From the NCBI GenBank assembly GCA_965202805.1, contig OZ241869.1, positions 2,720,001 through 2,784,000 of the forward strand: a DNA stretch of 64,000 bases, in the 5' to 3' direction. The DNA is from Longimicrobiales bacterium. Lineage in GTDB: Bacteria > Gemmatimonadota > Gemmatimonadetes > Longimicrobiales > Gaopeijiaceae. Positions 27,001-33,000 of the stretch are shown here, piece by piece. Position numbers: made by a program. How positions within the stretch are numbered: the first letter of the stretch is position 1; each line of letters opens with the position of its first letter.

Positions 27001-30000
27001 CGCGCGAGTTCCGTTACCACGCGGGCATCAGCATGATCGGCATCAACATCGGCGTGGCGGCGCCGATGGCCTTCTTCCCCTTCGGAGGCTCGCGCGGCTC
27101 CTTCTTCGGCGATCTCAAGGCTCAGGGCCGTGACTCCGTCGAGTTCTTCACCGACAAGCGCGTGGTGATCACGCGGTGGTGAACGCGCGCGCCGGCGCGG
27201 CACTGATCGAGCGCCAGCGCGCCTCCATCTTCCCGTGCGTGAAGCCGTTGTACGACGTGCCTCTGGTGCTCGTGGAGGCGGAGGGGGTGCGGGCCAGGGG
27301 CGCTGACGGGCGACAGTATCTGGACCTCTTCGCGGGCATCCTCACCACCTCCATCGGGCACTGCCATCCGCGAGTGGTCGCCGCCGTGCAGGACCAGGTC
27401 GCGCGCCTGGGCCACACCTCGAACCTCTACGTGACCGAGCCCTACGTGGCCGCGGCGGAGCGGCTCACCAGCCTCGCGCCCGCCGGCCTCGACCAGGTCA
27501 TGTTCACCAACAGCGGCACCGAGGCCATCGAGACGGCGGTCATGCTGGCGCAAATGCATACCCGGCGCAGCGAGATCATCGGCCTGCGGCTCGGCTACTC
27601 CGGGCGCAGCACGCTGGCTACGGGCCTGACCGGGCAGGCGCAGTGGAAGCCGCTCCCGGCGATGGCCCCGATCCGGCACGCCATCGCGCCGTATCCGTAC
27701 CGGCACGCCGACGGCGACAACGTCGACCGCTACATCGACGAGCTGGTCGAGGTGATCGAGACCACGACCACCGGACGGCCCGCCGCCCTGCTCGCCGAGA
27801 CCATCCAGGGGGTGGGTGGCTACATCGTTCCGCCGCCGGGATACCACACGCGTGCCGCCGAGGTGATCCGCGCCTACGGGGGCGTGTTCATCTGCGATGA
27901 GGTGCAGGCCGGGTTCGGACGCACCGGCGACCGCTGGTTCGGCATCGAGCACTGGGAGGTCGAGCCCGACATCATGGTGGTCGCCAAGGGGGTGGCGAAC
28001 GGCTTCCCGGTCGGCGGCACGCTGGCCCGCGAGGAGATCGCCGCCGCCTGGACGGGGCTCACCTTCTCCACCTACGGGGGCAGCCCGGTGTCCATGGTGG
28101 CCGCGCGCGCGACCATGGACGTCATGGTCGAGGAGAACACCCCCGCCCGGTCCGCCGAGCGCGGACGCCAGATGCGCGAAGGCCTGGAAGCACTCCAGCG
28201 CGACTATCCGTGGATCGGTGACGTGCGCGGAATGGGGCTGATGATCGCCCTGGAGCTGGTCGAGGACCCGGTCACCAAGGAGCCCGGCGCCAGGCTCGGC
28301 AAGGCGCTCCTGGAGGCTGCGCGCGAGGAAGGCGTGCTCATCGGGCTCGGCGGCATGGGCGGCCACGTGATCCGCATCGGCCCCTCCATGCTGATCACCC
28401 CGGAGGAGGTCGCAGAGGGGGTGGAGCGGCTGCGGCAGGCCTGCGCGCGGGTCGAAGCGGGGAGATAGACCCGGAGGCACCCGCCTTCCCGGAGTTCTGA
28501 TCAGCGGTCGCCCGCAGTGCTCGCGCTTCTGACCCGCACCTCCCCCTCCTCCACCACGAGCTCCTGGACGCGCTCGGCCTCATCGAACAGGAAGGGCCAG
28601 CGGCCTGAGGCGCCATCCGCCAGCCGCACGCGGCGTATGCCGTCCAGCGAGAGCGGCCGGCCCGGCTGAACGACGGCCGGACCCGTGGCCTCATACATCC
28701 AGACGGCGCCGCCCAGTGCCGAAGACACGCGGTAGCTTCCGTCCTCGATTTCCAGTGCGGCCCCCTCGTCGATCCCGATCCCGACGAACGAGCCCGAGCG
28801 GTGCTGCGCCAGCAGACGCCCGAGGAAGGCGAGGAGCCGTCCCTCACGGGACCGCTCCGTGAAGTGGGAGTCCACGATCGTGTTCGCGAGCTCGGGCTGA
28901 GGCAGGTTCGATGGTCCCACGCTGACCGATACGTCGGCGGGTTCCGAGAGGGCTTCGCCCGATGTGATGGTGCCGTGCCGGGCATCGAATGCGGCTTCGC
29001 CCAGCGACACCGCTCCGGCGCTGGTCCCGCCCAGGGCCGCCCCTCGGCGCGTTGCTTCCCCCACGGCGACATGGACCGAATTCGGCCACCGCCCCAGGTA
29101 GTTCCACTGGCTTCCGCCGGCGAGCCAGATCGCCTCCGCCCTGCCGAGGCGGCAGAGGACGCTCGGGTGGTCCGCCAGCGGAGGGGTGTCGGTGCGAATC
29201 GTGACCACCGAGGCCGGAGCCGGACTGGGGGCCAGTTCCGCCGAGAAATAGTCCGGGTAGCTGGTCAGCGAACCCGTTGCGCGCAACACGACGATGTCGC
29301 CTCCGGCGGCCGCTTCGGCGAAACGGCGGGCGGCGCCGTCCTCCTCGGGTCCTCCTCCCATGAGCACCAACCGGCGGACGGGAGACGGGGTGGCGTCGCT
29401 CCCGGTTCCCCGAAGCCCTCCGATCGTGGTGCCCGCGCCGGGTTCGGGGCAGCCCTCGAGCGGCTCGCCCAGCGAGGTCGCGCGCGTCGAATCGGCGCAC
29501 GCGGCGGCCGCCGCGACCACGAGCGCCGTCGAGATTCTCATGACGTATGGAGCTGCCAGAAGGCGCCTTCGAGACCCGCCTCGCGCAAGAGGGCCTGCTT
29601 CGTCTCCGCCGAGGAGGGACGCCAACGGTCGCTCAGCCGACCCGCGTACCATCCGCGGCTCAGCCTGCCCAGCGTCTCGACCGGCACGGTCGCACCCGGG
29701 TCGACACCCCGCCGCGCCGCCCACCGGGCCGCATCCGCTTCCGACCGGAACGCCAGGATGTTGCGTCAGGTGTAGCCGATGTCGTCCCAGAAGCGCCGGG
29801 CCGGCACGGGGAAGCGGACCACCGCGCCGTCGGCAGGTTCGACTCGCCCGCTGGTCACCGCCAAGTGGATCGCGGCGCCGGACCGGGGGCACGCGGTTCG
29901 CGTCCGTCCGTCGACGTCGAGGAGCAGCGGGATCGCGAGAGCATCCCAGGCGCAGTTGGCCCGGTAGTCCGTCCATCGCGTACGCACCCGGAAGGGCGTC

Positions 30001-33000
30001 TCCATGGCCGAAAAGGGATGAGCCATCCGGATTTCGCCCGCCTCGTCCAGAACCAGGATGTGAGCTTCCGCCAGGAACGCCAGAGCTCGATCCACATCGC
30101 CGGCCCCGGCTCCCAGTCCCCCGGCAAGTTCGACGCGGTCGGGGACCACCCCTGATTCACCGATTCTCCGGTAAAGATGGCCGCGCAAGCGCCACGCGAA
30201 TGCGTCACCTCGTCCTGTCACCACGGTCTCCCCTCGCTCCAACGCCAGGCAACACCCGGCTCTGCAGGCATCCCGGCACCATGGTGAGCCGCTGCCGAAA
30301 CGTCCAGCCCCAGGCGAAGCCGTTGCAGCCGTGCCGTCCCGCGGCTAGGCTTTTCCGATCAGACGAAGGGCGCATAACCGGTGGACGTGAGAGGAGGTCG
30401 GACAGGATCATGACGATGCCATGGCGACGACGGCTGGCGGCAGTCGTCCTTGCGCTTGCCGGGACAGCATGCGGCGACGAGGAGCCGACCGGGCCGATTC
30501 CCGATGTCGCGGGCACCTACAACGGCTCGTTCATCGTCCAGTTCCTGCTCAACCAGCAGGGCATACAGGGGTCGATGCAGGTCGTCGTCGAACAGGCCGG
30601 GGAAAGTGTGACGATCACCGGCGAGATGCAGGTTGCGGGCGGGGCCGCGTCGATTCCCACGGTTACCGGAACGCTGGACGCCACCGGATTCCTGGAGTTG
30701 TCGGGCGGCGGCTTCTCCGCCTCGGTCAACGAGGAGTTCTGCGGCCCCACCAGAACGCTCAGCTCAACCGTGAGGTTTTTCGGAAGAAGCGCGGAGGTCT
30801 CCGAGCACGCCGACACCGATTTCTGTGGGCGCGTCATCCTCTCGGGCTCGCTGGCGCGTCAGTAACGAGGGAGAATCGATCATGAAACCGACGCGCCGGG
30901 ATTTTCTGCGCACGACCGGTATCGCCGGGGTCGGACTGGGACTCGGGCTCGGCGCCCCAGGCATCGGCCTCGCCTCCGCCAACGGCACGCGCCGGAATCG
31001 AGCTGGCAAAGAGTCCCACGCGGAGCCCCGGCAGGCGCCCACGCCCAAGCGGCTGCTCGTCCTCGGCGGCACCGGCTTCATCGGCCCGCACATGGTTCGC
31101 TACGCGGTGGAGCGCGGACACGAGGTAACCATCTTCACCCGCGGTCGCGCGCAGGCCGCCCTGCCGGACGTGGAGCACCTCATCGGCGACCGCAACGGCG
31201 ACCTGGACGCCCTCGAGGGCCGCAACTGGGACGTCGTGCTCGACAACAACACGCAGAACTATCGCTGGGCGCAGTTGAGCACGGAGCTGCTGCGGGACGC
31301 CGCCGAGCAGTACATCTTCGTCTCCTCGATTTCGGCCTATGTCAGCCCCGGGCTCGCGTACCAGCACAAGGACCGCGTCCTCTACGAGCATCTCATCGAC
31401 GAGGACTCGGAGCGCTTCTCGCCTCCCGACGGCTGGCAGGACGGGGACGACGCCCACTACGGGCTCATGAAAGCGTTGAGCGAGGACATCGCCCACGCCG
31501 CCTTCCCGGGCCGCGCCACCATCGTCCGGCCTGGCCTGATCGTGGGCCCCGGCGACCGGACCGACCGCTTCACCTACTGGCCGCTGCGCATCTTCGAGGG
31601 CGGCGAGGTGCTGGCCCCCGGCAACCCGGAGCACGCCAACCAGATCATCGACCAGCGCGACATCACCGAGTGGATCGTGCGGCTGGCCGAGGACGGCGTC
31701 GCCGGCGACTTCAACGCGACCGGCCCGGCCGCCCGCATGTCGATGGCCGAGATGCTCTACGGCATTCGCGCGGCCACCTCGACCCCGGTCGAGTTCACCT
31801 GGGTACCGGAGGACTTCCTCGAAGAGCAGGGCGTGAGGCCCTTCGGCGACCTGCCGGCGTGGGCTCCCGGAGCCGACCTGATGTACGTGGACATCGACCG
31901 CGCGCTCGCGACCGGCCTTACCTTCCGCCCGCTGGCCGTGACCAGCCGCGACACCGTGGATTGGGACGGGACCCGCCCCGAGGAGGAGCGCAACAACCGG
32001 CGCGCCGGGATGAGCCGCGCGCGGGAGCGCGAGGTTCTGGATGCCTGGAGAGCGGCGGGCGCGTAACCCGGGCTGCTAACAGAGAGCCCGTTCGTCGCTG
32101 GCCACCTGATCCAGCCGTTGGGCGCGCGCGCTGTCCCCGAGCGCCAGAGCCGCGATGATCCCGCGCCGGGCCAGGGCTGGCCCGAAACATCGGGCCTCCA
32201 GCTGATCCACGAAGGCGTCCACCTGCGCCCGGTATTCGCCGGGGCGCCAGGCCTCCGCCCAGATCCCGAGCGGCTCCATCAACTCCGCGACCCGCGGGGC
32301 GTAGAGGTCCGCGAGCTCCCGGGACTCCTGCGAGAGCAGTTCGATGGCCCAGGTCGCGTCGTAGTGATTCGACAGCAGGAGCGCCACGGAGTAGAACCCG
32401 GCGCTCGCGCAGTCCTGCGGCACGCAGGTCGCGACCGCCACCACCGACAGCGCATCCGGCTGCGCCGTGGCGAGCAGGTTGATGCCCATCCGCCGTCCGA
32501 GCGACTCCTGAAACGCCGCTTCCAGCACGCGATTGGCGGTGGGGTCGTCGAAGGCCAGGACGACATCGATGCCCTCGAGATGCTCGAAGCCCATCTCCGG
32601 CTCCTGGGCATGCACCGCGCCCGGCATGCCGAAGGCGAGCCCGCACGCGAGAAGCAACCCCGAAGCGAGTGCGGACACCGGCGAAGTGCACTTCATCGAC
32701 CTGGAATCGCAGTTCATCGATTGTTCCCGTTTGCGTGGACCCGGCTTCATCCCGAAGCTAGTAGCCTGCGCGCGTTCCGGCACCGCATCCAGCAGCAACA
32801 CTTCCCCTGGAGAACCCCATGCGCCTCATCCGTATCTCCGGATTCGCCCGGCACCCCGGCACCACCGCCGCCACACTCGGCTTTCTCGCGTTCATCTGCG
32901 CGTGCGCTGAAGGACCCACCGCAAGCTTCGAAGAGCTGGCACAGGCGCAGCTGCCCCAAATCGATGGCCGCATCGAAGTTCCGGGGCTCGCGGGCGAAGT

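Follow-up and report, generated by a model that had tools for sequence, protein, structure and literature searches.

The window, the whole 64,000-nucleotide stretch of a Longimicrobiales genome analysed here, has on its minus strand an open reading frame that begins with GTG at 30224 and meets its first stop, a TGA at 29768-29766, after 152 codons. Gene callers report this N-terminal part (29769..30224) as a truncated 'organomercurial lyase'. If the TGA is read as selenocysteine (codon 153, 29766..29768; U153 in the context DIGYT-U-RNI), the frame remains open to the true stop, TGA at 29540-29538, and translation gives a protein of 228 amino acids encoded by the whole gene at 29538..30224. A purine-rich, Shine-Dalgarno-like stretch can be read directly from the sequence 3 nt ahead of the GTG start (30228..30235, minus strand). 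The 75 codons past the Sec codon (29541..29765) align with the remaining part of the MerB domain and with a C-terminal tail specific to this family. Folding and comparative analysis place a candidate SECIS hairpin within this coding sequence (29728..29764), where it encodes the conserved residues AFRSE. The next gene on the same strand (28501..29541) encodes a lipoprotein-like protein resembling peptidase S51 and cyanophycinase but falling under both family cut-offs (Pfam S51, 22.8 bits against 23.9; cyanophycinase model, 52.8 bits against 126.6). Its ATG (29541-29539) and the true stop of the selenoprotein gene overlap as ATGA.

The read-through protein has the MerB fold. Pfam MerB (PF03243) scores 90.7 bits on it (gathering score 27) over residues 71-193, a span that includes the TGA, in agreement with the read-through that an earlier note on this DNA had proposed. 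The AlphaFold2 model has a pLDDT of 96.7 over all 228 residues and of 91-98 for residues 151-228. In a Foldseek search of the PDB with this model, the 11 best matches are all MerB or MerB2, with E from 6e-12 to 4.9e-8, before a drop to E 0.12; these 11 are the sole solved-structure matches at E<=0.001, with TM scores of 0.55-0.73. At the sequence level, phmmer against the PDB finds 3f2g (E 8.1e-5) and 1s6l (E 1.2e-4), and the correspondence of active-site residues given in the earlier note is reproduced. The motif NCAWD (residues 90-94, 29943..29957) places Cys91 and Asp94 on MerB Cys96 and Asp99, and the column of MerB Cys117 also has Cys in our protein. Position 153 falls on the first Cys of the MerB motif FC(C/S)HVHFF, which is Cys159, in a single phmmer alignment with E about 1e-4. 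The query thus has two of the three signature residues Cys96, Asp99 and Cys159 as such and Sec at the column of the third. The NCBIfam models for MerB, NF009710 and NF033555, give 45.4 and 38.4 bits, in line with the scores noted before and under their equivalog or exception cut-offs of 193 and 200.

Conservation extends across the TGA. Among 92 aligned family members Cys91 is invariant, and column 153 is either a TGA or a Cys codon in all of them (an invariant C153 when U is written as C). In the C-terminal part, W168, W192, G217, L218, F222 and W223 are each kept in at least 90% of aligned members, and the 75 codons past the TGA are conserved as protein between phyla at 30-45% identity.

The genome has the machinery for selenocysteine, as had been stated: tRNA-Sec (74.8 bits), selA (524.5), selB (318) and selD (302.1) all score over their curated cut-offs. 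In the sample of 401 genomes of the phylum, selA is found in 52 of 52 genomes with the TGA form, compared with 320 of all 401. Of the four genomes with a Cys form, two (G202 and G135) are absent from the selA matches.

The hairpin has the apical loop GGUC (29746-29743), which begins 19 nt after the UGA, and an upper stem in which 29750-29747 pairs with 29742-29739; a lower stem sits under a bulged G and a bulge of 2 nt. The hairpin agrees with the bSECIS model in loop, stem, spacing and energy, as that model is described in PMC13188914 (apical loop of 3-9 nt with G in its first two positions, upper stem of 4-16 bp, 16-37 nt from UGA to loop, MFE of at most -7.5 kcal/mol). The MFE of the window hairpin is -15.5 kcal/mol, which is no better than that of shuffled sequence (z = 0.00), and for this reason the case for a SECIS is purely comparative. 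In loci chosen on protein similarity alone, codon 153 is TGA in 59 and TGC or TGT in 10. The exact pattern TGA-N15-TTCCGGTCGGARG occurs in 55 of the 59 TGA forms, the other four having variant hairpins, and the core octamer of the hairpin, CCGGTCGG, occurs in none of the 10 Cys forms. Compensatory pairs are found at 23-38 (UA 28, CG 13, GC 2) and at 18-40 (CG 24, GC 19). Paired cells make up 79.8%, against 39.5-53.9% with slid partners, these pair statistics being inflated by kinship among the sequences. The four core base pairs and the loop barely vary, so no covariation can be demonstrated there. The upper stem, 4 bp long in the window, has 5-8 bp in relatives. The predicted SECIS is nearly invariant between phyla and fixes the four amino acids F-R-S-E.

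The same predicted MerB-like selenoprotein occurs in many phyla of bacteria from soil and water. In the 401 genomes of the phylum, among 68 matches listed, 54 have one TGA, one has two and 13 have none; four of these 13 (G271, G138, G202 and G135) are homologues with Cys at column 153. A second phylum, sampled at 301 genomes, gives 37 matches, of which 25 have one TGA and two have two (three of the genomes are unpublished), and the five genomes from other phyla all have one TGA. Cys takes the place of the TGA in five database relatives of full length. The earlier note held that every homologue found keeps the TGA and that no Cys form was met; Cys forms in fact exist both inside and outside the phylum. 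A search with the exact DNA pattern of TGA plus hairpin, taking one genome per species, gives 120 matches, 116 of which are homologues. Record titles for these name 11 phyla, and the genomes are mostly metagenome bins. The restriction to aerobic Gemmatimonadota made in the earlier note is therefore too narrow, given these 11 phyla and the 27 of 37 matches with TGA in the second phylum. In the databases the family appears chiefly as fragments: 114 of 120 relatives listed are 125-188 aa long and cover just 46-67% of the read-through protein. When 149 of the best 150 representatives of 50%-identity clusters are classified, 51 are Cys read-through forms and 87 end exactly at residue 152, i.e., are the truncated form, which makes the family a common one. 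Sec forms keep the Cys-x-x-Asp pair, with an NCAWD-like motif in nearly all rows examined. Some Cys-form relatives have CAWC, with Cys in place of the proton donor equivalent to Asp99. Thr precedes Sec in the window protein and in nearly all of its relatives, Ala or Asn only rarely.

The gene stands alone. No merA reaches the cut-off in the genome (best 347.2 against 454.45 bits), no mer family occurs among the neighbours of the gene in the window, and none of 138 ORFs flanking relatives belongs to a mer-type Pfam family. No Sao family is present in the nine neighbouring window ORFs, and no neighbour is conserved past close kin. These searches of genome, window and flanking ORFs bear out the lack of merA context and the unconserved neighbours reported earlier. 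The host genome encodes haem-copper oxidase (COX1, 505 and 201 bits). We take the family as a gene that stands by itself, distinct both from SaoL and from the MerB of mer operons.

The analysis confirms that the gene encodes a predicted selenoprotein with a MerB fold and with Sec at the position equivalent to Cys159. We propose that codon 153, a UGA, is read as selenocysteine when the SECIS hairpin in the coding sequence recruits SelB with Sec-tRNA(Sec); translation would then run to the true stop, overlapping the start of the next gene. It is very probable that a 228-residue MerB-fold enzyme with Sec in the place of MerB Cys159 is made in this way. Sec153, Cys91 and Asp94 would together form a site whose MerB counterpart binds the metal and delivers a proton to the carbon of the metal-carbon bond. 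By this analogy, the odds that the protein is a lyase of metal-carbon bonds are about even. That the natural substrate is an organomercurial such as methylmercury is less likely than not, the alternatives being a different organometal(loid) or a role in metal binding. The Hg-C lyase of the earlier note is best taken as a proposed function: merA stays under its cut-off throughout the genome, and mer genes are absent from the neighbourhood.

The strongest competing explanation, with an appreciable probability that stays short of even, is that the protein is a MerB-fold selenoprotein but not a lyase. Its site may instead hold a soft metal(loid) (Hg, Cu, Cd, As, Se) or pass it on, or act as a redox centre. 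A Hg-Se bond would be hard to release without a partner, which counts against the lyase reading. The genomic setting (merA under its cut-off, neither mer nor SAO genes among the neighbours, and no neighbour conserved past close kin) and the wide margin by which the MerB equivalog cut-offs are missed point to the non-lyase role, and the CAWC of some Cys-form relatives suits metal binding better than protonolysis. MerB is also known to bind other metals, and one change turns it into a copper-binding protein, as Haft and Gwadz (10.1101/2022.07.06.499078) state in discussing SaoL. Against this, the Sec forms keep the Cys-x-x-Asp pair, the full MerB fold is retained including the N-terminal domain, and those characterised members of PF03243 that are mentioned in the same account by Haft and Gwadz (10.1101/2022.07.06.499078) are all lyases.

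It is improbable that the gene belongs, as a divergent member, to the SaoL family (selenocysteine-assisted organometallic lyase, NF040728) and forms no family of its own, although the likeness is considerable. As described in the SaoL account of Haft and Gwadz (10.1101/2022.07.06.499078), SaoL too is a MerB-fold selenoprotein that keeps the Cys96 and Asp99 equivalents and is truncated in databases at a UGA about 50-75 residues from the C-terminus; its Sec162 is likewise aligned to MerB Cys159. Since Sec at the Cys159 column is common to both, it makes no difference between them, and this part of the distinction from SaoL drawn in the earlier note does not hold. The rest of it stands. The SaoL model NF040728 gives 36.1 bits against a cut-off of 140 and matches residues 43-130 only, as was first reported. 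SaoL has a C-U dipeptide, whereas the present family has T-U. The C-terminal tail conserved in the present family, which closes with GLxGxFW, also sets it apart from SaoL. According to the same account, SaoL marks a nine-gene SAO locus and its hosts are exclusively anaerobic, in contrast to our stand-alone gene in a host with haem-copper terminal oxidases.

Least probable of all is that the TGA is a true stop, leaving a 152-residue truncated MerB-like product followed by a remnant in decay or by a small ORF in its own right: public gene calls do end at the TGA (the 114 of 120 short relatives above), a database protein of 70 aa (P0232) starts just after it and the hairpin energy is no better than that of shuffles, but the downstream codons are conserved and modelled with high confidence together with the N-terminal part, the Pfam domain spans the TGA, homologues have Cys at its site, the hairpin is found only with TGA, and selA is present in all 52 TGA-form genomes of the phylum sample.

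With the MerB-fold selenoprotein as the preferred reading, the family is an addition to the known selenoproteins. In the catalogues PMC13188914 (2026) and PMC9312934 (2022), the passages on MerB and mercury name SaoL alone, with its C-U motif, and the present family is absent from these passages. NCBIfam release 20 has no model covering it, so annotation pipelines keep calling a fragment of about 150 residues. The earlier suggestion of a new selenoprotein family is upheld to this extent, as a probably genuine selenoprotein for which no listing is found in these passages, in that release or in the literature searched, and fails in its limit to aerobic Gemmatimonadota. The near-invariant SECIS allows members of the family to be found by a simple DNA pattern, and would be a clear example of an RNA element constraining a protein sequence. 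Surveys of merB screen for Cys96, Asp99, Cys159 and Cys117, according to the screening procedure given in PMC8261052, and would drop the present genes. Should organomercurials be substrates of the enzyme, present inventories of the potential for demethylation may have gaps. More speculative, and rather unlikely as a whole, is that the family is the major MerB-like form of oxic soils and waters, as yet uncounted: a Sec-dependent organometal (methylmercury) lyase in which Sec is ancestral and which has spread among at least 11 phyla by horizontal transfer. On that reading, surveys requiring Cys159 or full length have missed the family, and selenium would give a high-affinity demethylase without MerA, so that the cycles of selenium and mercury would meet in one enzyme.

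The organomercurial lyase MerB of mer operons (EC 4.99.1.2; PF03243; 3f0p, 3f2g, 1s6l; MerB2 5c17) shares with the present protein the fold, the Cys-x-x-Asp pair and a chalcogen residue at the Cys159 column. MerB has Cys159-Cys160, whereas the present protein has Sec at the 159 column without an adjacent second Cys, and it has about 45 extra C-terminal residues. Its gene differs also in being without merA context in the genome and without merR, merT or merP among its neighbours. A further comparison is with Cys-containing members of the subfamily (e.g., P0113, an 'organomercurial lyase' of Yinghuangia seranimata), of which no experimentally characterised example was found in the literature searched. 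They show 32-41% identity over full length and share the C-terminal tail and the Cys-x-x-Asp motif. They differ in having Cys for Sec, other residues (often F-C-x-x) in place of FRSE, and no hairpin.

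The MerB-family gene at 29538..30224 on the (-) strand has a GTG start at 30224 and runs for 152 codons to an in-frame TGA at 29768-29766. When this TGA is translated as selenocysteine (Sec), the frame continues for 75 further codons until it meets a second TGA (29540-29538). This true stop overlaps the ATG (29541-29539) of the next (-) gene as ATGA, an arrangement that is the usual junction between co-translated genes. In the translated 228-residue product, NCAWD occupies residues 90-94 and DIGYT-U-RNILAFRSE surrounds residue 153. The Pfam MerB profile (PF03243), which has no other match in the genome, scores 90.7 bits over residues 71-193, so the MerB domain is continuous across the TGA. 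NCBIfam scores agree with those reported in the earlier note: the two MerB models give 45.4 and 38.4 bits, both sub-threshold (cut-offs 193 and 200), and the model of SaoL, the selenocysteine-assisted organometallic lyase, gives 36.1 bits, confined to residues 43-130. A phmmer search of the PDB returned MerB chains (3f2g, E 8.1e-5), one chance ribosomal match and nothing else. It aligns Cys91/Asp94 with MerB Cys96/Asp99 and places residue 153 on the first Cys in FC(C/S)HVHFF, the placement already given for NCAWD and for U153 on Cys159.

Five independent lines of sequence evidence argue for the decoding of TGA 153, as expected of the true selenoprotein that the earlier note had proposed: conservation of the TGA, the pairing of Sec with Cys counterparts, a SECIS element, the Sec machinery, and the conserved downstream protein. 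The comparative data fit a single reading, predicted SECIS-directed Sec insertion.

In 401 genomes of the phylum, a six-frame search gave a match in 65. The 68 listed matches contain one TGA in 54 cases, two in 1 and none in 13, so the TGA is not kept in every homologue as had been claimed. In tblastn alignments of the fetched loci, it always falls at one column, in the context FT*xxxxxFRSE. Nor does the earlier remark that no Cys form was met hold. Cys occupies the Sec column in five full-length database proteins at 35-41% identity, one of which is named organomercurial lyase (Yinghuangia seranimata), and in four relatives within the phylum (genomes G271, G138, G202, and G135). Classification succeeded for 149 of the 150 best 50%-identity cluster representatives: 87 end exactly at residue 152 and 51 continue with Cys. 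Three database proteins (P0101, P0124, and P0133) have Gly or Trp at this column yet retain FRSE or FRSD. Rather than true variants, they are probably the product of gene calling with a genetic code that translates TGA as an amino acid. Two loci look like decaying copies: L049 (genome G258) carries one additional TGA, at column 106, together with an altered hairpin (TGC for TTC), and in L145 the conserved Trp168 codon is replaced by TGA.

Thirteen bases, TTCCGGTCGGA(A/G)G, start 16 nt past the TGA and are invariant across 26 relatives save for one A/G position; the invariant bases take in the third positions of the Phe, Arg, and Ser codons. The region pairs as a CUUCC/GGAAG stem with a GGUC loop on top. 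Because the widest sample had been drawn with the SECIS DNA pattern itself, the element was counted only in loci found by protein similarity, minus three unpublished genomes. There the exact TGA-N15-TTCCGGTCGGARG is present in 55 of the 59 TGA forms. The remaining four carry variant hairpins, and in two of these U has become C, producing a C-G pair. The CCGGTCGG core is found in none of the 10 Cys forms. A two-helix model on the 59-sequence alignment has 79.8% of cells paired, versus 39.5-53.9% with slid partners. Both-sided changes occur at pairs 23-38 (UA 28, CG 13, GC 2) and 18-40 (CG 24, GC 19), and also at 22-39 and 25-36, although relatedness among the sequences inflates these pair statistics.

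The published bacterial SECIS model asks for a loop of 3-9 nt with G in its first two positions, at least 4 bp of stem, a distance of 16-37 nt from the UGA and an MFE of -7.5 kcal/mol or lower (PMC13188914). The window hairpin falls within all of these limits, lying 19 nt from the UGA with an MFE of -15.5 kcal/mol. Folded alone it is predicted, but z = 0.00 against shuffled sequence, so thermodynamics alone give no support for a SECIS. An Rfam scan of the region returned no curated family for the hairpin and two chance-level matches on the wrong strand. Scanning the genome itself for TGA plus a YCGGTCGR loop gave 299 matches versus 123 in a reversed control, which is too permissive for finding other selenoprotein genes. 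In a codon table of 152 TGA forms, the invariance of codons 159-161 is circular, since 120 searched loci had been chosen by DNA pattern; the contrast with other conserved residues, which vary in codon (Pro70 uses 4 codons and Leu51 uses 6), stands. One TGA form with FRAE (L035:1675-1728) has a CGUGCA loop on the same 6-bp stem and is a variant SECIS.

The genome encodes the Sec machinery, as had been noted, with tRNA-Sec (74.8 bits), selA (524.5), selB (318), and selD (302.1) all above their cut-offs. selA is found in 320 of the 401 phylum genomes, a count that includes two unpublished genomes, and in 52 of 52 genomes with the TGA form; two of the four Cys-form genomes (G202 and G135) are outside the selA matches. 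Since kin are not independent, this co-occurrence is treated as showing consistency rather than as a test statistic.

The residues past position 153 are conserved across phyla at 30-45% overall identity, and W168, W192, G217, L218, F222, and W223 are each at least 90% conserved among 92 sequences. AlphaFold2 on the 92-sequence alignment gives a pLDDT of 96.7 and a pTM of 0.92, with residues 151-228 at 91-98. The best 11 Foldseek matches in the PDB are all MerB and MerB2 (E 6e-12 to 4.9e-8, TM 0.48-0.73), and the twelfth reaches only E 0.12. Cys91 and position 153 are invariant in the same alignment. Asp94 is retained in nearly all Sec forms and replaced by Cys (CAWC) in some Cys forms. Many Cys-form relatives (loci L042 and L044, proteins P0128, P0164-P0167, P0171, and others) have Cys for the Asp99-equivalent proton donor (CAWC, CLYC, CIWC), and their three-Cys site resembles a metal-binding site more than that of a lyase. 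A divergent relative in a 637-base locus (L172:112-174), from a groundwater bin titled Myxococcota/Deltaproteobacteria, carries another in-frame TGA, at the column equivalent to Cys96, reading GQ*GFEA where its sister L154 reads GQCGFEA. A small stem with a GGUCU loop is seen by eye 17 nt past this second TGA, and RNAfold favoured another fold. This single example may be a form with two active-site Sec residues.

The exact pattern TWYACN-TGA-N15-TTCCGGTCGGARG, scanned against one genome per species (GTDB set), gave at least 120 matches. By tblastn, 116 of the 120 listed are homologues, at 23-90% identity. By record titles and locus taxonomy, the matches listed span eleven named phyla, and not Gemmatimonadota alone as first described: Gemmatimonadota, Actinomycetota, Acidobacteriota, Chloroflexota, Myxococcota, Armatimonadota, Bacteroidota, Calditrichota, Verrucomicrobiota, Ca. 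Rokuibacteriota, and Ca. Eiseniibacteriota. Single phylum labels may be wrong because most matched genomes are metagenome bins. In the phylum to which one of these loci (titled Actinomycetes) belongs, a protein search covering 301 genomes found a match in 36, three of them unpublished; the 37 matches have one TGA in 25, two in 2 and none in 10. A quick maximum-likelihood tree was built from 92 family members, with three canonical-type MerB paralogues as the root. In it, several Sec forms lie unresolved at the ingroup base and most Cys forms fall in two larger clades inside the ingroup. The tree needs 8-9 Sec/Cys state changes, only 2 of them forced by strongly supported branches. With modest support and a three-sequence rooting, it suggests an old Sec state in the subfamily, Cys as the derived form, and movement of the gene between phyla. 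Within well-supported Sec clades, Verrucomicrobiota, Gemmatimonadota, Chloroflexota, Bacteroidota, Acidobacteriota, and Eisenbacteria are intermingled at short distances, which points to recent inter-phylum transfer or mis-binned contigs.

The gene directly downstream (28501-29541, (-)), joined by the ATGA overlap, encodes a lipoprotein-like peptidase S51 or cyanophycinase-like protein that scores just below family cut-offs, and the coupled arrangement is retained within the genus only. Beyond it are an aminotransferase and a methylmalonate-semialdehyde dehydrogenase on the other strand; upstream, also on the other strand, the gene is preceded by a Tat-signal NAD-epimerase-like protein and a small lipoprotein. 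The window neighbours include no mer or Sao family, and no MerA in the genome exceeds the cut-off (best 347.2 versus 454.45 bits), in keeping with the lack of merA/merR context noted before. A pyridine-nucleotide disulfide oxidoreductase at 1460-2818 (+) scores 327 bits on the MerA model (cut-off 454) and is most likely a lipoamide-dehydrogenase-type enzyme, not MerA. The neighbours are indeed not conserved: across 99 loci, every neighbour cluster stays within one close-kin group, the largest having 11 loci. Pfam found no mer-type family in 138 ORFs flanking relatives, where a GNAT acetyltransferase is the sole neighbour type recurring beyond close kin. It adjoins the gene in five loci from different phyla (L064, L080, L101, L103, and L125).

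By analogy with MerB, an organometallic substrate would have its metal bound by Sec153 and Cys91 and its leaving carbon protonated by Asp94. A selenolate would bind soft metals tighter than a thiolate. Tighter binding could serve very low substrate levels, with product release a problem without MerA. On this analogy, the chances that the enzyme cleaves a metal-carbon bond are about even, and organomercurials are a possible but rather doubtful natural substrate. The main rival to a metal-carbon lyase is a role in metal binding or hand-over.

A large mer-gene survey checked MerB homologues for Cys96, Asp99, Cys159, and Cys117 and counted one Gemmatimonadetes genome (PMC8261052); TGA-truncated forms would fail such a screen. 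'MerB' is absent from the main text of the GOS paper (PMC2398784), Peng et al. (PMC5029168), and deep-Sep (PMC12013277). The new T-U MerB-like selenoprotein family is widespread and is unlisted within the searched literature, although catalogue supplements and further papers may list it. The nearest known system is SaoL, described as a MerB-like selenoprotein with a C-U dipeptide that marks the nine-gene SAO locus of strict anaerobes (Haft and Gwadz, bioRxiv 10.1101/2022.07.06.499078). Its Sec162 is reported there to align with MerB Cys159, so the Sec position, common to both, does not separate the two families. The distinction from SaoL drawn in the earlier note stands on other features. The window protein falls below the SaoL HMM cut-off (36.1 vs 140 bits). 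While SaoL has C-U, the SAO locus, and strictly anaerobic hosts, the new family has T-U, no SAO locus, and oxidase-bearing genomes, the present one having two haem-copper oxidase subunit I genes. The window gene is well supported as a real selenoprotein gene, and with its family the MerB superfamily has a second branch that bears Sec.
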